In this document: positions 12,787 through 35,221 of the stretch, in pieces
Layout of the letters: each line of letters opens with the position of its first letter
Position numbering within the stretch: the first letter of the stretch is position 1
DNA from: a virus
Lineage: Duplodnaviria > Caudoviricetes
DNA length: 64,000 nt
Direction: 5' to 3' (one strand)
Virus record (IMG/VR): IMGVR_UViG_3300037424_001167
Location: 3,867-67,866 of that record
Translations under genes and position numbers: made by a program
The notes under the pieces: generated by a model
Told to the model about the DNA's origin: nothing
The model's database searches: none
The model's input: only the letters and a program-made list of their open reading frames with translations

Positions 12787-12999
12787 GCACACTTGCATGA
12801 CTTGCATCAGTATTACAGAAAAAGAAACCAATGTGAATATTTTAATGTGTACTTTTTAATAGTAACATTACACTATATGTATGCGTATAGTACTATAGTA
12901 CTACTACTATTCTATATATAATATATAATATAGCAAATTGTTATATTGAGTATTATTCTCTACTATACTCTAAAGGTTGTATGTACAACATAATGTTAT
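12787..12999 (+). repeat. Copy A of a 213-bp inverted repeat (AT-rich, origin-like)
   Basis: Reverse complement of 35009-35221 with 4 mismatches and no indels, compared base by base. Confidence 0.95.
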
Positions 13000-13191
13000 T
13001 ACAATACTGTACAATATACATATGCCCCCTTGCATGGTGAAATGTTAACATTAGTTTCTTTTTCTGTAATACCAGGTGCAAGTTGTGTAGGTGTGCAAGT
13101 CTTGACTGTGGACCAGCCTGTGAAGCGGGTTTAGGTATGATTTTTGACGTGCATTGAAGCTGCATAGACATGCACAGGCTAAAAATGGACA

Positions 13192-13229
13192 AAAAAAACA
13201 GGGTAGGATGTGTGCTCCTACCCTGTTTT
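13192..13229 (-). terminator. Intrinsic terminator
   Basis: AAAACAGGGTAGG-atgtgtgct-CCTACCCTGTTTT. Confidence 0.7.
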
Positions 13230-13240
13230 GCAGTATTTAT

Positions 13241-13696
13241 CTATAAATACTTTGCGGCGCTTCTTTCACAAAATGCCAGTAGTTGACGTGCTACTTCTTC
13301 TGCATTGTCATTTGATACGACTTTAAAATGTATATGGCCATTGCTGGTAGACCATTCATGACAAAGAAGCATCATCAGGCAAAACGTTTCATCTTTGAGA
13401 TTTAACCTGTAATCCATGTATAAAGGATCAAGGTATAATTCAATGTGAACATTGTGCTTGTTGTAAGCGGGCCCGATAATAAGTTCTGGGTACCCATGAG
13501 CATAGCAGTAGTGGATATAGACAGGTTTGACGGTTTGCGCTGCTATTTTGCTCTTTGGTAGAACAAGATATCTACGGGATGCGGCTATCTCTACGATTTC
13601 CCTGTTTTTAGCGGACATGCGTTCCTTTTCACGCTCATACAAGTTCAGATATATTGATCTTTGTCTTTCCTTGGATTGTTTCTCTCGTGTGTCCAT
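13241..13696 (-). CDS. Hypothetical protein
   Basis: Start set at MDTREK; follows the DUF3987-like gene. Confidence 0.6.
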   Translation of the reverse strand: MDTREKQSKERQRSIYLNLYEREKERMSAKNREIVEIAASRRYLVLPKSKIAAQTVKPVYIHYCYAHGYPELIIGPAYNKHNVHIELYLDPLYMDYRLNLKDETFCLMMLLCHEWSTSNGHIHFKVVSNDNAEEVARQLLAFCERSAAKYL

Positions 13697-13707
13697 TTCT
13701 TTTGTCC

Positions 13708-15468
13708 TTAATCTTTGATGCGATACGAGCCAGCGGAGTCTGCTCTCTTTGCCGGTTCCCAAACAACTACAGTGCCCTCAAGTGGCTTGAGAGCTTTACT
13801 TATCTCCTCTGTGCTATATTTCTCATGCAAGCGTCTACGTATCTGAGCAACGGATAGCCATGCTTGTTTTTCATTGTCAGACTGTTTTGCTTGCTTGGAG
13901 GCTGTTCTCAGAAGTGTCACGATTTCACTTTCTTCTTGCGATTTGGCTGTTTTAAAGCCAGTTGCCTGTTGATAGAACTTAAGAACGCCACTCCTGAATA
14001 TCTCGACAAAGTACTGAGCGAGATACATATGATCGAGAGATATGGTTGTCTCTTTAGGATTGCCGTTTCTGTTCTCCACACTGGCAAAGAGAATTGCAAT
14101 TCTCAAATGAAGAGTGGAAAGGCGTCCGTAGTTCGTCCTCAGATCAACAGGGAACCACTCTGCATGGGATATGACCTTTAGGGCTGATCTGTATGCCTTG
14201 TACTGTTCATAGGCGGCGCGGTCGACTTTACAGAGATATTCTGGGAGAGGATTGATGAATTCTACCTCCATTATTTCATCAATTTTAGGCTCTCCTTTTT
14301 TGCTATCGTCATTCTGCCTCTCCTTTACCCTCACGTCTACCTCTGGGAACCCCAGTGACTCATGCCATTGACGCAGTATCTTGACCAGCTCAGGAGGCGC
14401 TGGTATGCGCTCAAGGTCAGCGCAGTCATCAATGTAGGTATTGTCAGGTGCGCAAGCATAATTGTTTCTACCTGATTGCCCATCCCCCCAGAAATCCGAA
14501 CCTGTCTTAGCAATGCTTTTAAGGTTTCTTGGCACTATGGAGCACAACATTGGCAAATAAGGTTTTTCTACATATTCCTCTTTCCTTGCCTGGGTATCCT
14601 TCCCAATTGGCTCACTGCAATCATCTATCTGTAAAAGGAATTGAATGTATCCTGATGTATTGGAATGCTCTTTGCTCATGTTTTTCAAAACATGCCCGTA
14701 CTCATCCCAATACATGCTTTTCTGAGCTGACCATGCTCTTTCTCTCCTGTAGCTCTCTTTTTCGTCATGTGTCTCATCTTGCCTCATTGCATCCCATTCC
14801 TCTACTGATATTTTCCTGCCAAGCATATTAGATATGAGCTTTTCAGGTGTTACCTCTTTTGTGCGAATAAGCAAATGATCTAATCCCAAGCTCTCTCTCA
14901 TCATTGTTATCGCAACGCTGGCCGTTGTACTTTTTGCGTAGTCAGTAGAACCGGCACATAGCACAATTCTAAGATTAGTGTATAGCTTCTTATTTGCCAT
15001 GTGCAGGTAGATCCTACGTGCGGCTATTGACGATAGAAGGAAAAGGAAGCTTGCAGGGTGGAAATCCTCATATCCCTCCTTTGATACTTTCTTACTGTGT
15101 TCTACGTACATTTGCGCAATTCTGTACGCCTCATGATCTTCAAGCTTGAAAGTTGCAGGTATCTTTACCTGCTCGGGTAATTCAAATTGCTTTTCGTTTA
15201 CTTGGGTACCATCATCTTCCTCCTCTTCAATGAGATCCTTGAGTGCTGGATCATTCTTGATAGCATATGCCATCTTCTCAAGGAATTCAGGAGTTATCTT
15301 TTTTGCTTTCTTAACCCAATTCTCATGATGCTCTAGTGCGCTTGTCCACTCTCCGTATTCCCCTGGTCTTGGCACTAATTCGCCTCTTCTGAGATATTCA
15401 ATTGCCTCACGTGCCAATTGTTGACAATCCTGGTCACTTATGGTATGATTTGATCTATCAGTAGTCAT
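13708..15468 (-). CDS. DUF3987/YfjI-like replication-associated P-loop protein
   Basis: FLLSSIAARR...LYTNL..VL.AGST..AKST..., TPEKLI, WDEYG, Y.RL....LRIA.L pattern. Confidence 0.7.
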   Translation of the reverse strand: MTTDRSNHTISDQDCQQLAREAIEYLRRGELVPRPGEYGEWTSALEHHENWVKKAKKITPEFLEKMAYAIKNDPALKDLIEEEEDDGTQVNEKQFELPEQVKIPATFKLEDHEAYRIAQMYVEHSKKVSKEGYEDFHPASFLFLLSSIAARRIYLHMANKKLYTNLRIVLCAGSTDYAKSTTASVAITMMRESLGLDHLLIRTKEVTPEKLISNMLGRKISVEEWDAMRQDETHDEKESYRRERAWSAQKSMYWDEYGHVLKNMSKEHSNTSGYIQFLLQIDDCSEPIGKDTQARKEEYVEKPYLPMLCSIVPRNLKSIAKTGSDFWGDGQSGRNNYACAPDNTYIDDCADLERIPAPPELVKILRQWHESLGFPEVDVRVKERQNDDSKKGEPKIDEIMEVEFINPLPEYLCKVDRAAYEQYKAYRSALKVISHAEWFPVDLRTNYGRLSTLHLRIAILFASVENRNGNPKETTISLDHMYLAQYFVEIFRSGVLKFYQQATGFKTAKSQEESEIVTLLRTASKQAKQSDNEKQAWLSVAQIRRRLHEKYSTEEISKALKPLEGTVVVWEPAKRADSAGSYRIKD

Positions 15469-15495
15469 CTGTCTTAAAATCCTTTTCTTGAAAAA

Positions 15496-15540
15496 TAAAA
15501 CCCGCTCAGATTTGTCGGTCTAGAGGCGGGTTTTATTTTT
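15496..15540. terminator. Bidirectional terminator-like hairpin
   Basis: AAAATAAAACCCGC...GCGGGTTTTATTTT. Confidence 0.65.
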
Positions 15541-15553
15541 GTATCTAAACCCA

Positions 15554-15581
15554 TATAGCAACTTGATGATACGTTGCTATA
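15554..15581. promoter_or_regulatory. Operator-like palindrome TATAGCAAC-N10-GTTGCTATA
   Basis: Perfect 9-bp inverted repeat of the same half-site found in the early promoters; upstream of the DUF3987-like gene. Confidence 0.6.
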
Positions 15582-15861
15582 GTATCTCTCTCTCCGATGA
15601 GAAATGCAATCCCATGAAAGTCACTCCCCCAGGACAAAAACTGAGGATTGCCAGTCCCTCTACCAGCTGATTTATCCTCTTAGCCGTCTCTCCCTTCTTG
15701 TCCGATTTGTAGAGAATAATATCCCCATGCTCAGCAATCTCCCATGCGATCTTACGTGCACGGTTAATATGCTCGTCTGTTATACCGCCACTGTCACGAA
15801 TTGCCTGTATCGCCAGTGGCACCATTGCCTCTAGATGCGTCTTTAGGAGAAAATCGCTCAT
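15577..15861 (-). CDS. Hypothetical protein
   Basis: Start MSDFLL coupled to the stop of the RusA-like gene. Confidence 0.65.
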   Translation of the reverse strand: MSDFLLKTHLEAMVPLAIQAIRDSGGITDEHINRARKIAWEIAEHGDIILYKSDKKGETAKRINQLVEGLAILSFCPGGVTFMGLHFSSEREIL

Positions 15862-16328
15862 TTGCCTATCCTGTCTATGCATACGCTTATTGCAATCTCA
15901 CATCTAGGATTATCTCTGTCCGCGTATTTCTCTCCACTAAAACGAACAACGCGATTATCATTTATTCCTATTTCATCAAATGCTGCATCCTCTGCTGCTT
16001 TTATTGCACCTGATGCATCTCTCCTCCACAGTGTATCAAAATAGAAGATCAAATGCCATGCAAGGGGGATTTTGACCTTACTTGCCTTAATTGCTTCAAT
16101 AACAGCATCATTCCTTTTGATATTCATCAACTGATAATGAGCCTCTTCCTTGAAATTAATTAAGGCTTCCGTGCCCATAATCGCATGTGCATGTTTTCCC
16201 TGCTTTGTCACCATACTCCTAATGTTGAACGATTTGTTCACACTTGGCGGTAATGGCATCGTGGCCACAAAGAACGGCTCCAAAGGCCACACCACCCCTT
16301 GCAAGGGGGGTGCTTTAGCTTTTGTCAT
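15858..16328 (-). CDS. rusA: RusA-family Holliday junction resolvase
   Basis: MPLPPSVN, RRDASGAIKAAEDA, GINDNRV motifs. Confidence 0.75.
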   Translation of the reverse strand: MTKAKAPPLQGVVWPLEPFFVATMPLPPSVNKSFNIRSMVTKQGKHAHAIMGTEALINFKEEAHYQLMNIKRNDAVIEAIKASKVKIPLAWHLIFYFDTLWRRDASGAIKAAEDAAFDEIGINDNRVVRFSGEKYADRDNPRCEIAISVCIDRIGK

Positions 16329-16337
16329 GATACTCCT

Positions 16338-16616
16338 TTAATTCGTGCATGTGGCGCAAATTGCCACTCCACAAAATTTCTTTGCTAAACGTCCGCATAG
16401 GATACAGCTTGCTACTTGATTTGAACGTTTCTTTGCTTCAAGATATTGATGCTCTTCCTTCTCTGCAATTTGAGCGTGCTTGCAGTATTGTGACATGCAC
16501 ACACTGCATGTCACACGTCCTCTAAATAATTCAACAATATACGTGTTGTTATCAACAAATACCTCATAGCGAACAATAACGCCATGATCAACTCTCTTGT
16601 GCTCTTGTCCTATCAC
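16338..16616 (-). CDS. Small SWIM-like zinc-finger protein
   Basis: VTCSVC...YCKH; GTG start after AAGGAG. Confidence 0.55.
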   Translation of the reverse strand: MIGQEHKRVDHGVIVRYEVFVDNNTYIVELFRGRVTCSVCMSQYCKHAQIAEKEEHQYLEAKKRSNQVASCILCGRLAKKFCGVAICATCTN

Positions 16617-16650
16617 TTGTTTTTCTCCTTTTGTATCTTGGTATACAGCA

Positions 16651-16679
16651 ACTATACCACACTTGTAGCAACTTGTCAA
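16651..16679 (-). promoter_or_regulatory. Promoter with GTTGCTA box
   Basis: Minus strand TTGACA-agttgctacaagtgtgg(17)-TATAGT. Confidence 0.8.
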
Positions 16680-16704
16680 CATTGCTATGATTTTTGAGCA
16701 TAAG

Positions 16705-16742
16705 AAAAGAGCCTCTCTAGCGGTCAGCTAGAGAGGCTCTTT
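16705..16742. terminator. Intrinsic terminator
   Basis: AAAGAGCCTCTCTAGC-ggtca-GCTAGAGAGGCTCTTT perfect 16-bp stem. Confidence 0.8.
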
Positions 16743-16769
16743 AGGGCAATTGCTACTGCATGGATCCTC

Positions 16770-17129
16770 CTATTTTATGCTGTACCCAGCATCTTTCAGC
16801 CGTTTTTCTACGGCTTTGATCACTTTTTTATCCAATGCAACAATGCAATGGCATTGGCGTACACTGTTGTTGGGGCAATGTACCTCTTGGATATCCTCAA
16901 TATTCAGAGAGGCAATTTTTTCGGCTTGCTTTCCGCCAATCAAATCGGATATTGCGCCGAGTTGACGCAAGCCGCTCCTCAGCTTCTCTTCTTTCGAAGC
17001 GGAGGGATCAGGATCGACGAAATGGATATTCCCTTCTTGTGGATAGGGATCCCTAGGACCGTCCGCAATTAATATGCGGTAATTTTGCTCGTTTCCGTTA
17101 AACGCGCAATCACAAACTTTTGCTTGCAT
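16770..17129 (-). CDS. Hypothetical protein
   Basis: Start set at MQAKVC; operon context. Confidence 0.6.
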   Translation of the reverse strand: MQAKVCDCAFNGNEQNYRILIADGPRDPYPQEGNIHFVDPDPSASKEEKLRSGLRQLGAISDLIGGKQAEKIASLNIEDIQEVHCPNNSVRQCHCIVALDKKVIKAVEKRLKDAGYSIK

Positions 17130-17613
17130 TATTTGAACCTTTCCCTGTGGGTACCCAAGTATATTCCCCAACTTTGAGGAATATTTTTGCTCCTGCAAGT
17201 ACGTTGTACACTTGTTCCAGGTCCTTACCCAGGACCCAAAACGCCGCCTCATCGTAACCGGAATTACCGCTATAGTTTGTGGGACCGTTAATAGCCTTAT
17301 TCTGAACCAAGCGAACATAGGACGGGTCCGCCATGTCCCATTCCGCTTTGAAGCATCTGGCCACTATGTCCCACTTTTCAGATTGATAGCGTGCCTCCTC
17401 ATCGGTGGCATTGGTCATGAGGAGATCGCCAAGTGCCTCAATGAGATCCTCCACATGTACTCTACGAGTAAGCAGCGGGGCCTCATATCCTGCCTCAAGA
17501 CGAACGTATATAGGTTCGATCGGGTCCACATCGGATGGAAGTGGATTAAATACTTTTCTCCTCTCCTCTCCCCCCGACCCTCTGTTCATGTTACTAATCT
17601 CTGGGTTAAACAT
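17110..17613 (-). CDS. Hypothetical protein
   Basis: Start set at MFNPEI after GGAGGA. Confidence 0.65.
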   Translation of the reverse strand: MFNPEISNMNRGSGGEERRKVFNPLPSDVDPIEPIYVRLEAGYEAPLLTRRVHVEDLIEALGDLLMTNATDEEARYQSEKWDIVARCFKAEWDMADPSYVRLVQNKAINGPTNYSGNSGYDEAAFWVLGKDLEQVYNVLAGAKIFLKVGEYTWVPTGKGSNNASKSL

Positions 17614-17649
17614 AATATCCTCCTGAAGAGGCATTGCTGCCCCACTGTG

Positions 17650-17850
17650 CTAATGTGATCCGAATTCGTTTAATTCGGCCTGCTGCACCCAACAGGATTC
17701 ACAGAATGGATTTCCATATCCACTGTAATTGTTGCAATACGCGCACTTGTCAGACGCGTAGAACGTGATACCTTTTCCGCAGATAGACTGCGTTACTTCT
17801 TGCACTTCAGTGAGAGGCTCTTTTTTTGTGTCTTTGTTAGTATCTTTCAT
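17650..17850 (-). CDS. Small Cys-rich hypothetical protein
   Basis: CAYC...FCESCW; GAAAGGAC RBS. Confidence 0.55.
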   Translation of the reverse strand: MKDTNKDTKKEPLTEVQEVTQSICGKGITFYASDKCAYCNNYSGYGNPFCESCWVQQAELNEFGSH

Positions 17851-17879
17851 CAAACGTCCTTTCTGGATACCCATGCCCT

Positions 17880-18383
17880 TTAGGCATCTTGCAGGATATC
17901 CTGCAAGATTTTGATGTATAGTGGAAGGTACACTTTGCGGAATTGATATGCCTCCTCCACAGTGGACAGTTTATCCGCGTGGATAAAAGAATCGGGCCGA
18001 CCACTACTCCGACTCACTTGACTCTTTTCTTCTGATCCATAGAAACGATAATATCCACTATGGTATCCAGGCGTGCCTGGAACATAGAACAGTGCCCTCA
18101 TAGCGTCTAGGTGCTCTTTGATGTCCCTTTCGGCCTTGAAATATCTGCTCTTGCTGTGCTCAAGGTAGTCTTGGTAGAGGTCTTCAGTCCTACCAAGACT
18201 ACGCTGTTTAGCAGCGAGATGCCCCTCCGCTTCTGCTTTCAACTGATGAACAGTGCATTTGTTGCTCAGCTGAACTAAATTCATCATGACACCGTACCTC
18301 ACCTGCTCCTCGAATGTCTCACCTTTTACGAGGATACTTGATTTACGGAACTCATCGATAATTGCTTTAATTGATTGTGGCAT
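17880..18383 (-). CDS. Hypothetical protein
   Basis: Start set at MPQSIK after GAGGAAAC. Confidence 0.65.
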   Translation of the reverse strand: MPQSIKAIIDEFRKSSILVKGETFEEQVRYGVMMNLVQLSNKCTVHQLKAEAEGHLAAKQRSLGRTEDLYQDYLEHSKSRYFKAERDIKEHLDAMRALFYVPGTPGYHSGYYRFYGSEEKSQVSRSSGRPDSFIHADKLSTVEEAYQFRKVYLPLYIKILQDILQDA

Positions 18384-18467
18384 TTGTTGTTTCCTCTTTC
18401 TTGCTATTCGACCGATTTGGCCGCTCCTGATCACCACCGAAGCGGTGAGCAGGGCCGACAAACGGGA

Positions 18468-18734
18468 CTAATCGATGACGAACCTCTCATCATGCTCGCG
18501 AAGATCCATAAACATACCATCTAATCTTAGAGAGACAGATGGGACTTCTCTCACAGAGAATGAGCATTCAAACCTATTACCTGATGGATGATCAGAGAAA
18601 TCATATCTCAATTGAGATCGGACTTCATTTTGGATCTCTTCTATAGACGAACCTGACATAACGGAAACGACATTCCAAAAAACATCATATTCCGACATGT
18701 CGGTGACTTCTGCATGAACAATGTATTGTGGCAT
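18468..18734 (-). CDS. Hypothetical protein
   Basis: 88-aa ORF with GAAAGG RBS. Confidence 0.65.
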   Translation of the reverse strand: MPQYIVHAEVTDMSEYDVFWNVVSVMSGSSIEEIQNEVRSQLRYDFSDHPSGNRFECSFSVREVPSVSLRLDGMFMDLREHDERFVID

Positions 18735-18823
18735 TTTGTGCCTTTTCTTTCTTCAATTAATCGAGCCCACTCGACTCGCACTTGCCAAGCCCGAAAACTT
18801 AGCAAGAACCAACCGAAAGGGAA

Positions 18824-19144
18824 CTATATTTTATAACGGAAATTGCTCTTAGCATCCATTTCCCTAGTTTTCATCCCATCGGGATCTAATTCCCAATGAG
18901 ACCACTTTTCGTCCTGCCATACGGGGAATTCCTGGCCGTCAATGACCACAATCCCCGACTTCCTCTCCCAACTTTCACCGTACGCTTTGACGTACCTCAC
19001 CCCTCTAACCACATCCAAACCATCAAAAACCTCTTCTCCTACTTTCACCCTGGCATTTCTGCAAGAGGCTTTTAGAGAGGAGACGAAACGATTACGCTTC
19101 TCCTCCTCGTCGCCTTTAAACATACCTGCTTGTATCCAACCCAT
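18824..19144 (-). CDS. Hypothetical protein
   Basis: ORF with GAAAGG RBS. Confidence 0.6.
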   Translation of the reverse strand: MGWIQAGMFKGDEEEKRNRFVSSLKASCRNARVKVGEEVFDGLDVVRGVRYVKAYGESWERKSGIVVIDGQEFPVWQDEKWSHWELDPDGMKTREMDAKSNFRYKI

Positions 19145-19228
19145 TGTTGTTGCCTTTCTTGCTATCAAGCCTACAATTGGCTCGCGCCTGCCGATTACAG
19201 AGCAACCGGCAGAAACTAACCAACTGAA

Positions 19229-19768
19229 CTAATACCTTGCGAATTGCCTAACCCCGATAATCTTGCCGTCGATGCGATAGGCCGTTGGGCCTGTATCTGG
19301 TCCGATGATGTCGGTGCGGCCTTTTGTCGCTTGACTCACAGGCATGGATACGATGTAGATGGACTCTCCATCAGGCTCAGGAAGTCCAACGACTTCCCCG
19401 AAGCTTGTTTTTACGACGGGGATGCCATCAATTTCCCCTGTGATTTCCGATGTTGTGGATACTCGTGCAACTCCTGCACTAGGATACTCACGAATAATCT
19501 GATTATCAGAGTCAACAATGGTAATAGTGTGTGGTGTCATGTTAACAATTTTTGTCATTGTTTTGACCTTTCTCTTTTGCCTATTTTGCTGGTACTGTGT
19601 GTACCATGCGTCAAAATCGATTTGCTCAACTGCGTACATTCTGCCCCATGGGGACTTGTGAGCTTTCAATCCCCATGATTTGCCTCTCATGTAGTCTCGT
19701 ATGGCGTTATTGAGTACGTTATGAGGTATGTTGTACTCAATCGCATACGAGGCTACTGGGTGCTCCAT
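19229..19768 (-). CDS. Hypothetical protein with a probable internal restart at 19558
   Basis: C-terminal 109 aa (NMTPHTITI...ARV...GLPEP...YIVS...GP) looks like a stand-alone phage family and has its own RBS GAAAGGTCAAAACA-ATG. Confidence 0.6.
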   Translation of the reverse strand: MEHPVASYAIEYNIPHNVLNNAIRDYMRGKSWGLKAHKSPWGRMYAVEQIDFDAWYTQYQQNRQKRKVKTMTKIVNMTPHTITIVDSDNQIIREYPSAGVARVSTTSEITGEIDGIPVVKTSFGEVVGLPEPDGESIYIVSMPVSQATKGRTDIIGPDTGPTAYRIDGKIIGVRQFARY

Positions 19769-20187
19769 TAAAATCCCTCTGTTCTTGCCTTCTCAGAGGC
19801 CCTTGCCTTTGCGGCCAAGACGTTGCTCACAAGGCGTACACGGCCTTTGAGGTCCGTTTGTCTGAGCCCCACGTTGACAGTGGTCTCAAGGACCTCCTGT
19901 GAGGAGTCGACCTCAAAGATCTGGTGGAATTCGGATTTATCAACTCCTCTAGCGCCTGTGCGTCCTCTCCCTATGATCTCAAAGCGCGTGCCATCGGGAA
20001 GGTCGAAGATTGTCTCGACCCAAGTTTTACTTTTGTCATTGCTATCATACCATCGGGTACTTACAATGAATTGCTTCACTTCAAACATCCTCTTCCCGTC
20101 ATGTTCACCTCCAACAAATTTGGATACAACGCTTGCACTTGAGGTTGTGTGGCTCTCTGATCCAGTTTCAATCAAAATTTTTGTCAT
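19768..20187 (-). CDS. Hypothetical protein
   Basis: 139-aa ORF with GAAAGGACAAAAACA-ATG. Confidence 0.7.
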   Translation of the reverse strand: MTKILIETGSESHTTSSASVVSKFVGGEHDGKRMFEVKQFIVSTRWYDSNDKSKTWVETIFDLPDGTRFEIIGRGRTGARGVDKSEFHQIFEVDSSQEVLETTVNVGLRQTDLKGRVRLVSNVLAAKARASEKARTEGF

Positions 20188-23000: not shown

Positions 23001-23160
23001 GGTACTGCTGAAGTGATGATCAAATACATCACTTTCCTTGTCTGTAAGAATTATAGCCCATCAGTACGGTATTTGTCAAGTACTTGATCTGCCAGAATAC
23101 CGCACTGATGGGCTATCGTGATAGGAATGGTACTGCTGAAGTGATGATCAAATACATCAC
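23001..23160. promoter_or_regulatory. parC-like region: two 32-bp direct repeats flanking a 21-bp inverted repeat and a promoter
   Basis: GGTACTGCTGAAGTGATGATCAAATACATCAC at 23001-23032 and 23129-23160 (identical); inverted repeat 23053-23073 / 23096-23116 (1 mismatch); minus strand TTGACA-18-TATAAT. Confidence 0.75.
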
Positions 23161-23777
23161 CTTCTCACCCTCTTCCTTGTAGCTTTCTTGCGTTTCAATC
23201 TCGCTGCTTGCTCCCGTTTGTGGATATCTAATTTACGCTCTCTGTACTCAAGTGCAGCTCGCTTGCGGTATCCGGCCTGAACACGCTTGACCGTCTTGTG
23301 AGCGCTCTTGACGGCCTTGACCGTGCCCTTGGCCGTACGGGCAATAGCCTTGCCGGTGGACTTAAGAGCTTTCACTGCAAAGCGCCCAAAACGATCACGG
23401 GGATGCTGGCTTTCCTTGTAGACAACCCCTTGCAAGGGGGATGCTTTGAGTTTCTTCCTGGCAGTTGCCTCCTTGCGTTCCTCCTTTGGAACTGTCCGGC
23501 TCTTGCGGACAGTTCGATTTGCTATCCACTCGTCACGGGCACGTTCAGAGGATGTTCGATTGTCTGGAAGCTTGCGGCCTGGCTTCATTGGCAAATCGGG
23601 CATGCGCCCCATTTGGCGTATACCTTCTTGCCTTTCGTGCTCTTCTACGCGCATTCGACGATATTTTACATCGATGCGTTCCTGTTCCTCTTCACGAGCA
23701 ATTTCACGGAGAGTTTCCCTGGTTCGAAGGGAATCCCTTCTGATTTCTTCATTGGATCGTGGATCGTAGTATGCCAT
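23157..23777 (-). CDS. Highly basic Arg/Lys-rich protein
   Basis: HPRDRFGRF motif and a K/R/A-rich C-terminal half. Confidence 0.65.
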   Translation of the reverse strand: MAYYDPRSNEEIRRDSLRTRETLREIAREEEQERIDVKYRRMRVEEHERQEGIRQMGRMPDLPMKPGRKLPDNRTSSERARDEWIANRTVRKSRTVPKEERKEATARKKLKASPLQGVVYKESQHPRDRFGRFAVKALKSTGKAIARTAKGTVKAVKSAHKTVKRVQAGYRKRAALEYRERKLDIHKREQAARLKRKKATRKRVRR

Positions 23778-27713: not shown

Positions 27714-27746
27714 GATTGCTTCTCGTATCCTTTCAATAAAGATCTT

Positions 27747-28217: not shown

Positions 28218-28306
28218 AGTGGACCTCTTTCTGCTCATAAGAGCAACTATTCGAGCAATGTGCCCGATGCTGCCAGCAACCGTAGCCGCTGGCAGAAACC
28301 GACAAA

Positions 28307-28534
28307 CTACCGTTTTACGATTCGAATAGGGGCGGGATTATCGGCGTCGTATTCGGCGTTTCGACGCTCGATAAGGCTGTTCCGGTCCTCTACAGGAGCT
28401 ACATACGTGCCGTCCTGAGCAAACTGTTTCTGCTCAGGAGTTGACTTTTTGCAGAGATGAGGAAACACCTCTGCAAAAGATCTAATCTCGTTATCCATTG
28501 ATTGTCTCACTTTCATGTTGTAGAGTCTCATCAT
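28307..28534 (-). CDS. Hypothetical protein
   Basis: 75-aa ORF in the small-gene array. Confidence 0.5.
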   Translation of the reverse strand: MMRLYNMKVRQSMDNEIRSFAEVFPHLCKKSTPEQKQFAQDGTYVAPVEDRNSLIERRNAEYDADNPAPIRIVKR

Positions 28535-28552
28535 ACTAACTTGCTAATCGAT

Positions 28553-28765
28553 CTAATCGATTAGCAAGCCATGGCCTTTGACAAGAGATCCATCTTGCCA
28601 TAATTTGCCAACTCTGTAGTGCGGCTCTTCCATTCCTACGCACTGATTGGTATCCTCGTCAAATACGAGAACACCTCCAACTCTAACATCATGCTCTCCT
28701 CGCAGGAGATGACCAAACTTCTTAAAAGTTCCGATAGTAACTTCTTTCTCTTTTTCGTAAGACAT
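28553..28765 (-). CDS. Hypothetical protein
   Basis: Start set at MSYEKE after GAAAGAAGG. Confidence 0.55.
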   Translation of the reverse strand: MSYEKEKEVTIGTFKKFGHLLRGEHDVRVGGVLVFDEDTNQCVGMEEPHYRVGKLWQDGSLVKGHGLLID

Positions 28766-28874
28766 AGTGTAAATCCTTCTTTCTGAACTTGCTTCACCCA
28801 ACAATGGGTGAATAGGTGGCTGACATTGTGAGTGCCACAACGGGCGTTACCCGTGCCACCAAGCTAGTTACGCG

Positions 28875-29033
28875 CTACGAAGGCGTCCATGTGGCAATTA
28901 ATACCCACTTGCCGCCTCGCTTTTGGTAGATCCTGTGCTCTATCCCCTCACCTCGCAGTTCGTCTGCGTACTGCACAGCATCATCTTCCAGTTCAAAGAC
29001 GACTTCGTCTTTGCCATAACAAATCTTAAACAT
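28875..29033 (-). CDS. Small hypothetical protein (52 aa, not in the ORF track)
   Basis: Manual translation MFKICYGKDEVVFELEDDAVQYADELRGEG...; GAAGGACAAAAGCA-ATG. Confidence 0.6.
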   Translation of the reverse strand: MFKICYGKDEVVFELEDDAVQYADELRGEGIEHRIYQKRGGKWVLIATWTPS

Positions 29034-29050
29034 TGCTTTTGTCCTTCCGG

Positions 29051-29698
29051 CTATCTCAATACGCTAAATGCGCGATTTTGAGTAAGAGGAGCGTTCATCA
29101 TGTCTTTCTTTGAACGCTCTTTTATCTCGTTAATCTCACCAAGAATGTCTGATTTATGTTCTGCCCTCTGAGTGATCTCTTCAAGCAAATCACGGCGTTT
29201 GCGCTTGGTACCTGTTGAGACGATACGGTAGACAGGTTTGACCTCTTCCACCTTGCAAGGAGGATTTATGAGCTTCTTAACCGCTTCTACCGCTTTTGCG
29301 TCTGTCCCCATTAACTCACCATCGTGCACCCAGACAGTGTGGGTGTGGTTGTAGATCCACATCTCATTGTCTACCTGGGTGATCGCGGGCTCTGCAACGA
29401 TCACAGGAGCGCTCTTTACCACTACTGGGCAACCAGCAGGATGAGTAGCGCTGTATGGGTGAGCTGCACTGTAGGCACTGACCTGTTTGATGTGCCTACA
29501 GTTGTTCACAGTGGCAGGACAAGTGCAATCCCACCGACACCGCTCATAATTCCAACGTACCAGGTGCGACGTATCTGGGTGGCTTAGGCTTGCCACCAGG
29601 AAGAAAATCTCACCTTGTTGAATATGAGTACCATCAATGTCTAAGGGCCGATTAGCAGTCAAACGAATGAGTGGATATCCGGTTAATGTGGTTGTCAT
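29051..29698 (-). CDS. SWIM zinc-finger-containing protein
   Basis: WDCTCP....NCRHI motif; AAGGAG RBS. Confidence 0.7.
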   Translation of the reverse strand: MTTTLTGYPLIRLTANRPLDIDGTHIQQGEIFFLVASLSHPDTSHLVRWNYERCRWDCTCPATVNNCRHIKQVSAYSAAHPYSATHPAGCPVVVKSAPVIVAEPAITQVDNEMWIYNHTHTVWVHDGELMGTDAKAVEAVKKLINPPCKVEEVKPVYRIVSTGTKRKRRDLLEEITQRAEHKSDILGEINEIKERSKKDMMNAPLTQNRAFSVLR

Positions 29699-29709
29699 GG
29701 TGTTTCTCC

Positions 29710-29877
29710 TTAATTGTTTATGTTGAGTGGAATATACTCAACAACTTCATAATCGTTCTCAATGATGATATGCGTGCTAGTCCTGGAGATGGTAAATAAC
29801 TCTCCAGATGCTAGTAGTTCCAGTTGCTTGGGTTGTGCCTGTAAGAACGCTTCAATTTCTTCAAGCAGCTCATCCAT
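29710..29877 (-). CDS. Small acidic hypothetical protein (55 aa, not in the ORF track)
   Basis: Manual translation MDELLEEIEAFLQAQPKQLELL...; AAGGAG RBS. Confidence 0.6.
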   Translation of the reverse strand: MDELLEEIEAFLQAQPKQLELLASGELFTISRTSTHIIIENDYEVVEYIPLNINN

Positions 29878-30139
29878 GATTGACTCCTTGTGGTAAGCTA
29901 GAATTGGACTACATAAAGGTTCACTTTGCCCATCTCACTGGTAAGTTTTCTGGCTAGATCAGTGAGATGGGTTCTTTTTGTCTTCTTCATCTCTCGCTCC
30001 CTAGTGCTGTGTCCATGGAGTACAAGTCAATCCATGTTGTACTTAGAAGGGATGCCTCAGTAGGCCTTTCTGATCGATGCGCTTTATTCGATTGTGAATG
30101 TTCAGGCTCTTTCGTTTCGCCGTCCGTGTTCTATGTATG

Positions 30140-30292
30140 TAGTATGCCACACAAAGTCTTGGCTGTCAAGACTTTTTGAGACCAATTTTGATCAGTTTCT
30201 AAAACCCATAAAGCATGAAATATACAGTCACCAAACACCAAAGGCATTCACAAATAAAGTATTGACAAGCAAGACTATTAGTGTTACTATAT
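30140..30292. promoter_or_regulatory. Divergent promoter pair at the main strand switch
   Basis: Minus strand TTGACA-17-CATACT (about 30141-30169) and plus strand TTGACA-17-TACTAT (about 30262-30290); both have CAAGACT 2 nt after the -35. Confidence 0.65.
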
Positions 30293-30329
30293 AGGAGGAA
30301 GTCAAACGTCTACAGAAAGGAGAAAGGAG

Positions 30330-30590
30330 ATGTCTAGAGGAATATGGATAACCAGCAAGGAAGCTGCTGAGATCCTATCAAAGAACAGTGGAAGAGCCAT
30401 TAAAGATCAATACGTTCGTGATTATGCCCGTAAAGGGCAAATCCGATGGAGGCCAATTGATGGTCGGTCAAATGAATATCTCAAGAGTGACGTTGAGAAA
30501 CTGAACATCAAGAAGAACAAACCACAGGCGAATCGCAAAACAGATCTATCGCCGGAAACCATTCAGTTGCCACTAGAAGATGCTGCATAG
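30330..30590 (+). CDS. HTH_17/excisionase-like DNA-binding protein
   Basis: WITSKEAAEILS...YVRDYARKGQI...YLKSDVEKL. Confidence 0.75.
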   Translation: MSRGIWITSKEAAEILSKNSGRAIKDQYVRDYARKGQIRWRPIDGRSNEYLKSDVEKLNIKKNKPQANRKTDLSPETIQLPLEDAA

Positions 30591-30722
30591 GCAGCTTGCA
30601 GTGCTATCGCCTGTGAAGTGAACACACTGCAAGCCACAACCATGCCAACATTGTAACAGATTTGCCTCTGGGTGAGTCTGTCTTTTTTTTAACCAACGCA
30701 TATAGCAACTTTAAGCTAAATG

Positions 30723-30751
30723 TTGGCAAGTTGCTGTAAGTGTGCTACAAT
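30723..30751 (+). promoter_or_regulatory. Promoter with GTTGCTG box
   Basis: TTGGCA-agttgctgtaagtgtgc(17)-TACAAT; TAGCAAC half-site at 30703. Confidence 0.7.
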
Positions 30752-30769
30752 AAGAACCTAGGAGGTTCG

Positions 30770-30940
30770 ATGAACAATTCAAAAGAAACCTACCGTGTAT
30801 CCATCACTTTTCCCATGGAGATGGTGAAATTGATCCGGTCTAAAGCGCAAAACGATGACCGAACGTTCACATGGGAAGTAGTCAATTTATTGAAAGCGCA
30901 ATTAGCGCAAGAACAGAAAGAGGTACAAACACATGAGTAA
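30770..30940 (+). CDS. Arc-like ribbon-helix-helix regulator
   Basis: RVSITFPMEMVKLIRSKAQNDDRTFTWEVVNLLK. Confidence 0.75.
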   Translation: MNNSKETYRVSITFPMEMVKLIRSKAQNDDRTFTWEVVNLLKAQLAQEQKEVQTHE

Positions 30941-31754
30941 AGTTATCCAAATTTCCAATGATGATTACAACAATCACCAATGGAGAGAAGACGAAGAAGA
31001 GACAGCAAGCTTCGTAAAGATTAACGGTGACAGCTTTGAAAATATCGTCATGCGTAATGGACTACCCATAGAGGTAACCGTTACAAAAAGTGTCAAGAAA
31101 GGAAGAGGAAAAAGCCAAGTTACAGTTGCAGAAGAAACAACAGTCAAAGCGAGGTACATTCGGGGTCTTTTTAATGATTTCTGCGAAGAGAGGGGATGGA
31201 TCGATGATCTTTTTCAGTGCGTCCTTGACGGGCTTGTAGAGCCTATGTCTTCTGATTTTGTTGACTGGATATACAAACATGCAACACTTAAAGCGGGATT
31301 AATCCAGGGATCAGGAGAAGAGAATGAGCAGTGGCTAGTGGCTATTGCGGATCTGGTCATAAGAGACGCCATTATGGTAAAGAAACATGATGAGTATAAA
31401 GCAGGCCGCAAAAGGGCATTCACAAATAAGACTATACGTGGGTGCATGATTCACAGACAATCACTCAGAGACTCAAAAAGCGCACAAGCCAAAGGAATGA
31501 ATGGAGCTTTAAAACAAAAAGGATTAGGCGCTGGTGATCTTAAACAGATGCATGAGGATGTTGAGAATGGGAAGAAAACAAAAGGTGGTATCACGATAGA
31601 AATAGCTGAAAAGCTACAAGACTCCGTTAATGATGTTAGATCCACTGTTTCTGAAATTGCAGCATCAGTCCGTCAAGACTTTGATGCAATAGGAAGCAAA
31701 ATGATCGAAGAAATGAAAAACCAAGAATTGCTTGAAGGAGATGACAATGAATAA
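30933..31754 (+). CDS. Hypothetical protein
   Basis: 273-aa ORF coupled to the Arc-like gene. Confidence 0.75.
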   Translation: MSKVIQISNDDYNNHQWREDEEETASFVKINGDSFENIVMRNGLPIEVTVTKSVKKGRGKSQVTVAEETTVKARYIRGLFNDFCEERGWIDDLFQCVLDGLVEPMSSDFVDWIYKHATLKAGLIQGSGEENEQWLVAIADLVIRDAIMVKKHDEYKAGRKRAFTNKTIRGCMIHRQSLRDSKSAQAKGMNGALKQKGLGAGDLKQMHEDVENGKKTKGGITIEIAEKLQDSVNDVRSTVSEIAASVRQDFDAIGSKMIEEMKNQELLEGDDNE

Positions 31755-32856
31755 TGAATTAGTGCAGACAGGGCATTTTGACTTAGAGCCAGTGACTAAT
31801 GAGTCAGATGAAATCATCATTGACGCCACTTGGGCAAGTCTCTCCGATGAAGAGTTTGATCAAGCTGCTACAGAATATCACGGGGTTCTTGATCAACAAG
31901 AGAATGTCCTCAAGATGATGACAAATGAGGTTATACGCAAGAAAGGAGAATTATACATGGCTTACAAAGCAAAACAAGGTCATGGAAAGTTTATTGGTTG
32001 GTTAGACAAAATTGGCATTTCACCACGTACTGCTCAGGAACACATGCAAACCGTCAGGGAACTGGGAGACGAACTTTCAAATACGCGCCATGGCGCGTAT
32101 TTGGGTTTTAATGTATGGAGAAAATTAGCGCGTTCTACAGAAGGAAAGCAAATTGTAGCAAAAATAGAGGCTGGAGAAATTGAACCTACTCCCAAGGCCG
32201 TCAATGCTGAGATAGAAGCGGCTAAACAGCGTGAAATGGAAGCTAAACGAGCTGCTGTAGATGCTGTTAAAGCAAAAAGACAAATAGAAGAGGAGTATTC
32301 AGCAGCATCTCAGCAGCTTTCTCTTTCACTGGAGAATGCAAAAGTCAAGCAGTCTCAACTTGAAAAAGAGATAGCAGCTCTCAAATTAGAAAAAGAGAAC
32401 ATGGCCCGCCCACAAGAGAAAATCGTCTATGACGATAAACCAGAGACGATAGAGAAGCTTGCTAAGCTTCAAGAAAAAGAATTGAAACTTAAAAGCGATC
32501 TACTAAAGAAGGAAAAAGACTTAGAAGATGTAAGAGGATATAATGCCAGGTTTGCAGAGGAAAACCGCAAGCTTACAGAACAGATGCGTGCTAGCTATGC
32601 TGATAGGCAAGCCGTTATAGGCCAAGTGCGTATTCGTGAGGAATGGAGGAAGAATATAACTAGTCTGCACGTTGCCGTATCAAAGTTCGTTGCTGAGATA
32701 CCTTCTCTCATTGATCAGGAGTCTCTAGAGGGGGATGATTGGGCACGGCACGCCCAATGTGTCGAGATATTGCAGCATGCCCTAGAAAGGCTACAGCAGA
32801 TGCGTAATAGCCAGCCAGATCCATTCGTAGATGCCACTGTTGTATCAAGCTGGTAA
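31747..32856 (+). CDS. DUF3102-like domain plus long coiled-coil protein
   Basis: HGKFIGWLDKIGISPRTAQEHM pattern; E/K-rich coiled coil. Confidence 0.65.
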   Translation: MNNELVQTGHFDLEPVTNESDEIIIDATWASLSDEEFDQAATEYHGVLDQQENVLKMMTNEVIRKKGELYMAYKAKQGHGKFIGWLDKIGISPRTAQEHMQTVRELGDELSNTRHGAYLGFNVWRKLARSTEGKQIVAKIEAGEIEPTPKAVNAEIEAAKQREMEAKRAAVDAVKAKRQIEEEYSAASQQLSLSLENAKVKQSQLEKEIAALKLEKENMARPQEKIVYDDKPETIEKLAKLQEKELKLKSDLLKKEKDLEDVRGYNARFAEENRKLTEQMRASYADRQAVIGQVRIREEWRKNITSLHVAVSKFVAEIPSLIDQESLEGDDWARHAQCVEILQHALERLQQMRNSQPDPFVDATVVSSW

Positions 32857-33194
32857 TGCCTATTGATAAATCCCGCTATCACCCAAACTTTCCCAAACGC
32901 GCTAGCTATTGCGTCAAACGAGCAAAATATACCTGCCGAGAATGCGGAATAAAGAAAGGTGACAGGTATATCACTCAAAAAGGGGATACCATGAAAGCAG
33001 TTATTCAAGCCGCTCACATCAATCATGACCCGATGAACGCAAGAGCTAAACTGCGTGCCCTTTGCGCCGTATGCCATCTGAAATATGATGGCCCAATGCA
33101 CGGCAAAAAGGCAGCGAACACCAAGAAACAGAAGAAAATCCAAATCCAAATAGATGCTGGCCAACAATATCTACGCGGATTTAAGCCTAAATAG
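32856..33194 (+). CDS. HNH-type endonuclease-like protein
   Basis: CRECG...QAAHINH...N...LRALCAVCHLKYD. Confidence 0.75.
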   Translation: MPIDKSRYHPNFPKRASYCVKRAKYTCRECGIKKGDRYITQKGDTMKAVIQAAHINHDPMNARAKLRALCAVCHLKYDGPMHGKKAANTKKQKKIQIQIDAGQQYLRGFKPK

Positions 33195-33205
33195 TACCAC
33201 AAACA

Positions 33206-33243
33206 TAAGGGGACCTGTACCCAGATGGGCGGGTCCTTTTTTT
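33206..33243 (+). terminator. Intrinsic terminator
   Basis: GGACC...GGTCC stem followed by a T run. Confidence 0.55.
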
Positions 33244-33296
33244 GTTGCCATAATTCCCCGATTCCTGTACACTGGCACCCAGGAAAGGAGACTAAA

Positions 33297-33473
33297 ATGG
33301 ATAGCGGATTGATTGGATTATTTGCCGTCGGGCTATTTGTAGTATTTGTAGTATCTCTGTTTAGCCCGTCAACAACTTTTAGATGCAAGAAGTGCGATTT
33401 CACAACTGGTGACAAGCTCAGGGCCGCTGGTCACGTGGCATTAGAGAATACTCACAAATGCGAGGAGTGTTAA
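33297..33473 (+). CDS. Small membrane protein with a C2H2-like finger
   Basis: One TM segment, then CKKC...H....H.C; AAGGAG RBS. Confidence 0.65.
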   Translation: MDSGLIGLFAVGLFVVFVVSLFSPSTTFRCKKCDFTTGDKLRAAGHVALENTHKCEEC

Positions 33474-33609
33474 GCACTTTTTGTTGTATACTGCCTATGC
33501 GCCTCCAGGCTGTCGTGGCGTGCTGCCTGGAGAACCGAAAACGAACCTGGATGTCCTGCAATCCCAGCTTGTGAGAACAAGAACAGTGCAGGTCGGCCAG
33601 GACACGCCT

Positions 33610-34170
33610 CTACACTAACTCCTGAATTGTCACCTCCCACACATAACCAACTGCAATATCGAGATAGACATTCCCGCCTGAATGCTCCTCTGTTTCACCA
33701 CTTGTATTACTGCTATTGCACATCGTATTGATCGCAAGATCCTTATACGTGCCATTAGCGTTATGAACTGTTATGATCACATTGTATGATCCATTGTAGC
33801 TAGAAGCAGGATCACAACTCCATTTGATTTTCCAGTTATCCCCAACGGTAAATATCTCAGTCTTCTTGACCCCGTTCCCTGTAAGCGTATGCGTTGTTCC
33901 CCATGCAAGGGGGCTGGGAGTGGGCATTGCAGCGCTTGTAGGTGTCAACACTACTTTGGTAACCACGGGAAGCGTGGGGACAATCGTAGTGCTATTTGGA
34001 GGCACTGGAGAGCGACTTGCCACATTGATTGCCACTGCTACAGCAAAGCAACCAGTAATTACTGTACAAATCCAACTTGACCAGCCTGAATACCTCCACA
34101 TCAAATATAATCCCACTGGGAAGAAGAGAATGAGCATCAGGATGATGCCAGTGTTACGTTTGTACCACAT
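33610..34170 (-). CDS. Membrane-anchored exported protein
   Basis: Two N-terminal hydrophobic segments, Pro/Thr linker, beta-rich C-terminal domain; start set at MWYKRN after GAAAGGAC. Confidence 0.75.
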   Translation of the reverse strand: MWYKRNTGIILMLILFFPVGLYLMWRYSGWSSWICTVITGCFAVAVAINVASRSPVPPNSTTIVPTLPVVTKVVLTPTSAAMPTPSPLAWGTTHTLTGNGVKKTEIFTVGDNWKIKWSCDPASSYNGSYNVIITVHNANGTYKDLAINTMCNSSNTSGETEEHSGGNVYLDIAVGYVWEVTIQELV

Positions 34171-34190
34171 AAATTTGTCCTTTCTGAATG

Positions 34191-34219
34191 TTGACATAAT
34201 ACCATAGACGTGGTATGCT
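34191..34219 (+). promoter_or_regulatory. Promoter for the CRISPR-like small RNA
   Basis: TTGACA-taataccatagacgtgg(17)-TATGCT with extended -10 TG. Confidence 0.75.
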
Positions 34220-34222
34220 ATC

Positions 34223-34409
34223 AGGGATAGAAGACGACGCCCGTTTGGGATTGAAACAAACATTGGTAAGGATGAGGGACAGCAGGGATTGAAGATGGTG
34301 CCCGATTGGGATTGAAACAAGCAATAGACTCATATGAAACACAATCAGCCCGATTAAGGGATTGAAACGAGCTTTACTACAAGGACTATGCATCCCGTTT
34401 GGGTACAAC
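34223..34409 (+). CRISPR. Degenerate CRISPR-like mini-array (3 clear units plus 1 eroded), no cas operon
   Basis: Units end GGGATTGAAAC at 34257, 34318 and 34368; units 1 and 2 match at 30/35; each has a CCC-loop-GGG stem. Confidence 0.7.
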
Positions 34410-34411
34410 AC

Positions 34412-34452
34412 AAAAAGCACCTCACGCGATTGAGCGAACGAGGTGTTTTTTG
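34412..34452 (+). terminator. Intrinsic terminator closing the small RNA
   Basis: AAAAAGCACCTC...GAGGTGTTTTTT. Confidence 0.7.
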
Positions 34453-34766
34453 TTGATCTTTAGTAACGCCTTTTGTTATTAAAGAAAATGGCAAAATATT
34501 TAATAACGGGAGCCCTGGGCAGTAGTGGTAAGAAGCCCAGGGCTAAAAAGGACAAACGTACAATCCGGACCGGATGTCTCCATACTACACCATGCAAGGG
34601 GGTGTGGCAAGCTCCCTCCTCACTGTTGAGAGCCTCCTCCTTGCCTCTTGCAGTCTCTTTCCACTAGATTGCCTATCCCTCTACCCGCTCCCTCAGATTA
34701 GCTCCTCAATGCGATTTCAATGTTACACAAGAATGTGGATACACTCTTCCCCATGCAAGGTGTAGG

Positions 34767-34786
34767 ATGTTGATTTAAATCAACAT
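34767..34786. promoter_or_regulatory. Perfect 20-bp palindrome ATGTTGATTTAAATCAACAT
   Basis: Seen directly; a 1-mismatch core TTGACTTAAATCAA lies at 35314-35327. Confidence 0.6.
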
Positions 34787-35008
34787 GGAAATAGGCGTAA
34801 AATAGACTTGCACAACATGCATGTTCTAGGAAGCATGTCTAAAATGCCACTGAGACCGCTTCACAGGCTGATCAAAATTAGAACATTCACACCTGCACAA
34901 CTTGCATCAGTATTTTACAAAAATAAAAATACCGACGTTAACATTTTAATGTGTATCTTTTACCATGCAAGGGGGTTATGTTCTATTACAGTATGTTATA
35001 ACAACAAT

Positions 35009-35221
35009 ATAACATTATGTTGTACATACAACCTTTAGAGTATAGTAGAGAATAATACTCAATATAACAAATTGCTATATTATATATTATATATAGAATA
35101 GTAGTAGTACTATAGTACTATACGCATATATATAGTGTAATGTTACTATTAAAAAGTACATATTAAAATATTCACATTGATTTCTTTTTCTGTAATACTG
35201 ATGCAAGTCATGCAAGTGTGC
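35009..35221 (-). repeat. Copy B of the 213-bp inverted repeat
   Basis: Reverse complement of 12787-12999 (209/213 identical). Confidence 0.95.

Follow-up and report, generated by a model that had tools for sequence, protein, structure and literature searches.

A 98% identical inverted repeat lies within two copies of an origin-like module in the genome of an uncultured temperate phage

Here we describe a pair of inverted repeats in a phage genome (designated G000) represented by the IMG/VR virus record IMGVR_UViG_3300037424_001167, which comprises 67,866 bp and is classed as linear and 84% complete. Bases 3867-67866 of this record form the window, i.e. the whole 64,000-nt stretch that was analysed and whose numbering is used below. 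A repeat search of the window placed the two copies, A (12784-12999) and B (35009-35224), 22,009 nt apart; each is 216 nt long and they are 98% complementary. We propose, with moderate confidence, that both belong to a cis-acting module that the phage genome carries twice, probably a replication origin of the kind served by a self-loading helicase, as in Staphylococcus aureus pathogenicity islands (SaPIs) or in the ori/crr regions of phage P4. This module would have been duplicated in inverted orientation, and a 216-nt tract of it would recently have been copied by gene conversion from one locus to the other.

Two inverted modules and the repeat inside them

Alignment of region 12650-13250 with the reverse complement of region 34750-35350 revealed two loci of approximately 500 nt that correspond end to end; 216 nt of this length are 98% identical and the remainder is 55-70% identical. 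Each locus is a non-coding quasi-palindrome with two arms, and all four arms can be aligned over about 190 nt. Each arm contains an outer and an inner pair of ACYTGCAY repeats (iterons), spaced by 9-10 nt, as well as a box AGTATTACAGAAAAAGAAAC and an element AATGTKAAYATTT, while the AT-rich core between the arms is asymmetric, with CCCCCTTGCATGG at one of its sides. In module A (12690-13190) the core lies between arms 12810-12842 and 13040-13072, and the iterons lie at 12706, 12716, 12792 and 12801 (plus strand) and at 13076 and 13093 (minus strand). Module B (34771-35312), whose limits are defined by a break in nucleotide homology with the relative G001 (see below), has arms at 34888-34927 and 35181-35220, and iterons at 34807, 34892 and 34901 (plus strand) and at 35201, 35210 and 35218 (minus strand).

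The concentration of iterons within these loci is far from random, since 10 of the 19 ACYTGCAY sites of the 67.9-kb genome are located inside the two modules (binomial P = 4e-14). In both modules they are placed on the plus strand in the left arm and on the minus strand in the right arm, with at least two iterons per side. According to a nearest-neighbour energy calculation, the two cores are the least stable 100-nt windows genome-wide (-99 and -102 kcal/mol, compared with a mean of -135 and a standard deviation of 7), i.e. about 5 standard deviations from the mean. They are also the only 150-nt windows of the genome with an A+T content of at least 78%. Because this layout matches that of SaPI origins, both modules may be read as copies of an origin, or as an origin accompanied by a second site resembling P4 crr. 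The iterons would be recognized by a DUF3987/MCM-like helicase encoded by the phage, through its winged-helix-like C-terminal domain, and the helicase would load on either side of the core and open it, as SaPI Rep proteins do.

The repeat itself occupies a defined part of these modules. Within module A, copy A takes in the inner iterons, one of the arms and the greater part of the AT-rich core, and copy B is its reverse complement. Realignment of the 213-nt interval reported by the first-pass annotation (12787-12999 versus 35009-35221, inverted) reproduced its four substitutions and absence of indels; over the full 216 nt there are five substitutions (12786, 12828, 12847, 12879 and 12937) and again no indels, the longest exact run being 62 nt. 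A pair of this kind is not a product of chance. The borders are sharp: compared without gaps, the adjoining 30 nt match at 6/30 positions outwards and at 10/30 inwards. Beyond them, we could confirm both a weaker inverted similarity on the inner side (13000-13130 versus 34840-35008), which includes an exact 15-mer CCGCTTCACAGGCTG at 13114 (minus strand) and 34856 (plus strand), and a resemblance of the left flanks in direct orientation (12715-12827 versus 34815-34927, 74%).

The copies are non-coding and very AT-rich, as had been noticed previously: the A+T content of the repeat is 74.5% (77.7% in 12843-12999), compared with 55.3% for the genome, and no credible open reading frame (ORF) is present within it. 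A coding or RNA gene was considered and rejected, since the repeat contains only tiny ORFs, two ORFs overlapping the part with weaker similarity have no conserved frame, and searches with Rfam and ARAGORN detected neither an RNA family nor a transfer RNA (tRNA) in the repeat.

The first-pass annotation took the near identity of the copies as a sign of recent duplication or of ongoing recombination or gene conversion, and the alignment of the complete loci agrees with this. A recent gene-conversion patch is the best explanation for a 98% identical tract of 216 nt embedded in loci that are otherwise only 55-70% alike. Modules A and B would thus be old copies, and gene conversion or patch repair would recently have transferred an inner pair of iterons from one to the other, together with one arm and the bulk of the core.

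The 98% zone covers one arm with its iterons and stops within the core, 40 nt before the other arm. The outer arms have a mosaic structure: in direct orientation the left arms of A and B share 71% identity (z = 12 against shuffled sequences), the inverted partners share 56-57%, and no relationship is seen between the right outer arms (42%). It follows that more than one exchange has probably taken place in the past. We also considered a small switch, in which the core would flip between its own 33-40-nt arms and A and B would be direct repeats caught in opposite states. This was rejected because the arms do not delimit the 98% zone, which takes in one whole arm with its iterons, and because the right outer arms are unrelated and the 15-mer at 13114/34856 fits an inverted relation. 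Arm symmetry gave no preference between the present and the flipped configuration, the summed arm identities being equal (244 and 242, respectively). Two further candidates were dismissed: a promoter switch in the cores, where only weak matches to the consensus (9/12) were found, and a ParM centromere, since separate repeats (23001-23164) are present at the parM locus.

Several other short sequences occur in or near the modules. The 15-mer TTCTTGTGTAACATT occurs to the left of each module, its two occurrences being oppositely oriented (12653-12667, plus strand; 34719-34733, minus strand), 11-15 nt from a CCCYTGCWWGGG palindrome; it also occurs at the position of module B in G001 (15212), and a similar word is present in the relative G005. 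The 13-mer GTTGTATGTACAA (12976-12988 and 35020-35032) is restricted to the origin-like modules of G000 (twice), G001 (15148) and a further relative, G003 (15867, one mismatch), despite their differing iterons; it may be bound by a conserved factor of the host or the phage. Finally, a 68-nt stretch that is 80% identical to the AT-rich core (E = 4e-7) was found in a Ktedonobacteria-class metagenome-assembled genome (MAG; locus L039, 1470-1580; G092:C435:6566-6633), within an intergenic region of 700 nt that lies upstream of small genes of the ricin-type lectin-like kind. It is the sole match among 151 Ktedonobacteria-class genomes, and may represent a shared AT-rich promoter or melting motif, or an effect of base composition.

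The helicase operon and the modules of related phages

Module A lies directly after the intrinsic terminator (13195-13229, minus strand) of an operon that ends with a 586-amino-acid (aa) helicase gene (13708-15468, minus strand) and a 173-aa ORF (13241-13762, minus strand), the latter being placed between the helicase gene and the module. The promoter of a helicase-methylase operon (TTGACT-17-TATAGT; 12559-12587, minus strand) is located just beyond the other end of module A. A family of nearly identical early promoters occurs on the minus strand (2065, 6582, 8531, 12550 and 16642); its members have the form TTGACT/TTGACA, 17 nt, TATAGT and share a GTTGCTA box. A DnaG-type primase with a CHC2 zinc finger is encoded by a separate gene (6759-7907, minus strand).

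We propose the 586-aa protein, a DUF3987-family MCM-like helicase with a winged-helix-like C-terminal domain, as the initiator binding the origin. Of its 17 aligned homologues, 16 match the DUF3987 Pfam family (PF13148), and the protein itself gives weak PHROG matches to 'primase'. The best PDB matches of its AlphaFold model (predicted local distance difference test score, pLDDT, 82) are MCM2-7 subunits, with Foldseek E values down to 1.7e-5; SaPI Rep chains are not among the top structural matches listed. Residues 508-586 form a helix-helix-helix-strand-strand unit that resembles a winged helix, and weak winged-helix Pfam matches were obtained for homologues. It has been shown experimentally that a PriCT-DUF3987 protein is a helicase (PMC11724360).

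Homologues of the helicase were found at 78% (P0002) and 41% (P0003) identity. The C-terminal domain is the most divergent part of the protein among the relatives (12-19% identity, compared with 28-44% for the ATPase core). Comparison with a metagenomic DUF3987 protein (P0005), which shares 82% identity in the first 100 residues, 27% in the ATPase core and 16% in the C-terminal domain, points to domain-level mosaicism within the helicase gene. Distant homologues are also encoded by Thermosporothrix hazakensis and one Ktedonobacteraceae MAG, which fits the view that the host of the phage is probably a member of the Ktedonobacteria.

Using homologues of the integrase of G000, we identified five related IMG/VR contigs (G001-G005, 52-87% identity) and subsequently two more. 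None of the relatives contains a long inverted repeat, and an AT-rich module precedes the phage attachment site (attP) in every one of them. In G003 and G004 (the latter rated 100% complete) the order is helicase, a single iteron-containing AT-rich module, split tRNA halves and integrase. In G005, a module with TTGCAT iterons follows the helicase operon and a different AT-rich module precedes attP. The iterons themselves differ from phage to phage: G004 carries TTCTAAG (12 of 17 copies in one 500-nt bin), G003 an ATACAG-type sequence, G002 ACTTAY and G005 TTGCAT, those of G003 and G004 being unrelated to the iterons of G000. The helicase-side module of G005 (13030-13240; L027) contains a box ATTACAGAAGAGAAAAAC resembling ATTACAGAAAAAGAAAC of G000 and is flanked by CCATGCAAGGG and CCCCTTGCAAGGGG; the helicases of the two phages are about 27% identical. 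In a distant IMG/VR relative (L030, 5440-5490), five TCGACA repeats are clustered in 60 nt between the genes for a DUF3987 helicase and a DnaG-type primase, and TCGACA-like words surround the AT-rich module on the attP side of another locus, L048.

The closest relative, G001, shares 96-99% identity with G000 in its virion proteins, and the two genomes are collinear to the left and right of module B. The nucleotide homology is interrupted exactly at 34771-35312, a position occupied in G001 by a shorter, different, AT-rich cassette with TCTAAG-like repeats; the module is therefore a discrete, exchangeable cassette. In its iterons, the attP-side cassette of G000 thus agrees with the module next to the helicase operon of the same phage. 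Module B would occupy the ancestral position, just before attP and the integrase gene, and module A would travel with the helicase operon.

The discreteness of module B relative to G001, together with the non-coding character and inverted arms of both modules, could also be reconciled with a non-autonomous element resembling a miniature inverted-repeat transposable element, which has terminal inverted repeats and would have inserted twice in opposite orientations. We regard this as very improbable. The 98% identity extends over only a part of the module, the rest being 55-70% alike, and direct repeats are not seen at the module borders. No further copies were detected in the genome, in the five relatives or, by exact-word searches, in IMG/VR and JGI contigs, and the 151 Ktedonobacteria-class genomes contain none apart from the single weak 68-nt match. 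Moreover, relatives have a module of unrelated sequence in the corresponding position after the helicase gene.

An assembly artefact (a chimeric join or a collapsed repeat) is a natural suspicion, as the record is a short-read metagenome contig. The copies differ, however, at five positions and have different flanks, and at junction B the independent contig G001 has the same order to either side of the cassette. Exact runs between the copies do not exceed 62 nt, so that assembly with words longer than this can assign each copy to its place without ambiguity. Both modules are, in addition, situated in sensible intergenic contexts, and we consider an artefact extremely improbable.

Exact-word scans of IMG/VR and JGI metagenome contigs yielded nothing beyond the known contig G001 and no second arrangement, and blastn gave no match among GenBank phages. 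No close relatives of the helicase were found in IMG/VR, and profile scans revealed only distant loci, which lack a comparable module.

The attachment site, the recombinases and possible inversion

The window contains structural genes as well as genes for a tyrosine integrase, a ParM-like protein, helicases and a methylase. The block enclosed by the repeats was correctly described as containing a DUF3987-family gene, a ParM-like gene and a CRISPR-repeat-like RNA, while the RusA and ATPase assignments correspond to weak matches (RusA and AAA_10, respectively). The CRISPR-repeat-like RNA (34191-34452, plus strand) is bounded by a promoter and a terminator; its units end with GGGATTGAAAC and it is 80-94% conserved in G001 (15700-15560). 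Module B is not adjacent to the helicase gene: it is located after this RNA and before attP and the integrase gene.

The first-pass annotation had drawn attention to a tyrosine recombinase close to copy B. The proximity is real, as the gene for this 355-aa protein (35570-36637, plus strand; Pfam PF00589, E = 1e-34) starts 346 nt from the copy. A connection with the repeat is not supported, since the recombinase has its own attP derived from tRNA-Arg(CCG) (35357-35521), with the 5' half of the tRNA on the plus strand (35357-35395) and the 3' half on the minus strand (35480-35521). This attP lies 40-210 nt upstream of the recombinase gene, and the layout is retained in six relatives that lack the repeat. 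The enzyme would thus be an integrase for a tRNA-Arg site with no role in the repeat. Split tRNA halves, placed head to head (5' half on the plus strand, 3' half on the minus strand) about 90-130 nt apart before the integrase gene, were observed in all seven genomes or loci examined in this respect (the window, G001-G005 and L048). In G000 and G001 the tRNA 5' half is preceded by a promoter, TTGACT-18-TAGGAT.

A CCGCTTCACA(G/A)GC-like motif is present in the module arms and immediately beside the tRNA 3' half (13107-13135, 34856-34870, 35232-35250 and 35535-35549), and CCGCTTCACA-like words also occur next to this half, before the integrase gene, in every relative (G001-G005). It is possible that these are arm-type sites of the integrase or sites for an accessory factor. 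Because the motif links the modules with the attP flank, the element on the attP side may also serve integration or regulation.

This leads to an alternative in which the modules are not origins at all, but protein-binding platforms acting as attP arms or in control of excision, or involved in regulation, handcuffing, incompatibility or partition. Besides the common CCGCTTCACA-like motif, such a role would be consistent with the AT-rich module that precedes attP even where the helicase gene is far away (G001, G005 and L048), and with the attP-side module of G005, which lacks the iterons of the helicase side. On the other hand, module A has the full anatomy at a distance of 22 kb from attP, and the modules are situated 200-700 nt from the attP core, beyond the usual distances of arm sites. 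The iterons vary between relatives while the integrases remain 52-87% identical, the ParM locus has repeats of its own (23001-23164), and a strong promoter was not found in the cores. We therefore judge a platform function to be unlikely.

A number of observations nevertheless weigh against the assignment of the modules as origins, an assignment that we draw from their architecture. The CCGCTTCACA-like motif, which is kept across relatives, is found in the modules and beside attP alike, and this hints that a conserved protein, such as the integrase, may also bind there. A simple inverted duplication does not predict the mosaic outer arms, in which the left pair is most alike directly. The 173-aa ORF intervenes between the helicase gene and module A, and the helicase itself has no direct match to the DUF3987 Pfam family. 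TTGCAT-like iterons are present in both G000 and G005, yet the C-terminal domains of their helicases are only 12% identical. In G005, furthermore, the AT-rich module on the attP side lacks these TTGCAT iterons, so the element at this position may be an attP arm, a promoter region or the site of a second initiator.

It was proposed in the first-pass annotation that the enclosed block might be invertible, giving two genome isomers. Under this reading the 22-kb early block would be flipped by homologous recombination or by either of two tyrosine recombinases, and inversion may serve replication or copy-number amplification, as for the 2-micron plasmid, herpes simplex virus (HSV) and chloroplast genomes. 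A repeat of 216 nt with 98% identity is sufficient for homologous recombination, and a conversion tract would show that the copies interact. No gene crosses either repeat junction; the flipped isomer is sterically possible, with both junctions lying between a terminator and a promoter, so that the junctions would be insulated and no operon cut. The flip would bring the helicase operon beside attP and the integrase gene, which is the order observed in G003 and G004, and an earlier crossover could have left the mosaic pattern of the outer arms. Flip-flop across inverted repeats has been demonstrated in Burkholderia phage Matilda (bioRxiv 10.64898/2026.10.21.760668). In the flipped isomer of G000, the two copies of TTCTTGTGTAACATT would become direct repeats around module A.

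Against this, the contig was assembled unbroken through both copies, the persistence of five differences indicates that homogenization is not constant, and the closest relative, G001, has the same orientation of the block at junction B. Orientation polymorphism, for which the relatives had been suggested as a test, was not encountered: none of them has the same block reversed. G004 differs from G000 by several rearrangements and not by one flip; as the gene orders of G003, G004 and G005 reflect several rearrangements, they provide neither evidence for a flip nor grounds to exclude it.

The recombinases lend no further weight to inversion. The second tyrosine recombinase (301 aa; 62907-63812, plus strand), with a SAM_1 and a catalytic domain in a XerC/D-like layout, is encoded about 28 kb from the repeat and lacks a homologue in G001-G005; in combination with ParM, it would be consistent with the resolution of dimers of a plasmid-like prophage. 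No 12-mer is common to the modules and this recombinase gene or its immediate flanks, the sole nearby shared 12-mer being located about 100 nt past the stop codon. Neither a serine recombinase or invertase anywhere in the record nor an attP-core-like word in the modules was detected, and the high-identity zone is not bounded by the short inverted core sites of a site-specific invertible segment. Taking into account the separate attP of the adjacent integrase, the lack of a serine recombinase, the distance of the second recombinase and the lack of a 12-mer shared with it, a site-specific switch is unsupported.

The resemblance to the copy-number amplification system of the 2-micron plasmid, which had also been suggested, is not supported: attP is separate, the repeats yielded no target site, and an origin-like module is associated with each of them, in contrast to the single asymmetric origin of 2-micron. 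On balance, we consider the existence of two isomers rather unlikely. It is decidedly unlikely that the origin-bearing repeats constitute a working device that flips the 22-kb early block during replication. If they did, the flip could turn bidirectional replication into a form similar to double rolling circle, or bring the helicase operon to attP and the integrase gene. This temperate and possibly plasmid-like Ktedonobacteria phage would then offer a bacterial-virus counterpart of the logic of HSV oriS and its unique short (US) segment, or of 2-micron. According to the duplicated-origin reading, homologous recombination over the 216 nt might still occasionally flip the block, as a by-product and not a designed switch.

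Comparison with known replication and inversion systems

If the modules are indeed origins, a replication origin and its likely initiator would have been located in uncultured temperate Ktedonobacteria phages that lack an experimental system, and the poorly studied DUF3987/MCM-like helicases would be linked to a SaPI-like iteron origin. Origin cassettes would then be swapped between close relatives and copied within one genome, which bears on the mosaicism of phage replication modules. The 216-nt conversion tract would provide a natural marker for recombination between origins that lie 22 kb from each other, and the repeat pair offers a simple test case of whether short inverted repeats create isomers of phage genomes. 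No new principle is involved, since duplicated iteron origins are already known from P4 and HSV.

The inversion systems Hin, Gin and Cin, FimB/E and the Rci shufflon have a dedicated invertase next to or inside the invertible segment, while none is present here. The 2-micron plasmid combines two inverted repeats with a tyrosine recombinase on one replicon, as does G000, but the FRT sites on which its FLP acts are located within the repeats, and the plasmid has a single asymmetric origin, whereas the integrase of G000 has a separate tRNA-type attP.

Burkholderia jumbo phage Matilda carries repeats of 1.5 and 18 kb at its genome ends; both orientations were shown by polymerase chain reaction and long reads, and intramolecular homologous recombination was proposed (bioRxiv 10.64898/2026.10.21.760668). 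The inverted repeats of Matilda also bracket a genome segment, but they are not origin modules and are far longer than 216 nt. In general, the near-identical inverted repeats typical of flip-flop systems (HSV US, the inverted repeat of chloroplast genomes, Matilda) are present in G000, although far shorter.

The oriS of HSV-1 consists of an AT-rich centre flanked by sites for the origin-binding helicase, and its two inverted copies bracket the US segment, which can invert by homologous recombination; likewise, two inverted origin-like modules bracket a unique segment of G000. The repeats of HSV are identical over kilobases, and equimolar isomers have been proven, while the repeat described here measures 216 nt and isomers are hypothetical. 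In phage P4, both ori and crr are reportedly bound by the alpha primase-helicase, a finding ascribed to Flensburg and Calendar in 1987 and to Ziegelin, Lanka and colleagues in the 1990s; crr serves as an additional site and is not known to be a complete origin in its own right. The two separated regions of G000, with the same ACYTGCAY iterons and arms and one predicted phage-encoded initiator of the helicase type, recall this arrangement, but both copies have an AT-rich core, and part of them is 98% identical in inverted orientation.

In module structure G000 resembles SaPI origins, in which the iterons are placed just downstream of rep, with at least two opposed iterons on each side of an AT-rich centre; the C-terminal winged-helix domain of Rep reads the element-specific iterons and the helicase loads itself, needing no separate initiator or loader (PMC9371898). 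Comparable modules follow the helicase gene in G003 and G004, or its operon in the case of G005 and module A of G000, and opposed iterons surround an AT-rich, most easily melted centre. The differences concern the helicase, which is DUF3987/MCM-like by fold, the host, which is Ktedonobacteria-type, and the module, which at about 500 nt is far larger, has 190-nt arms and occurs twice, in inverted orientation, 22 kb apart.

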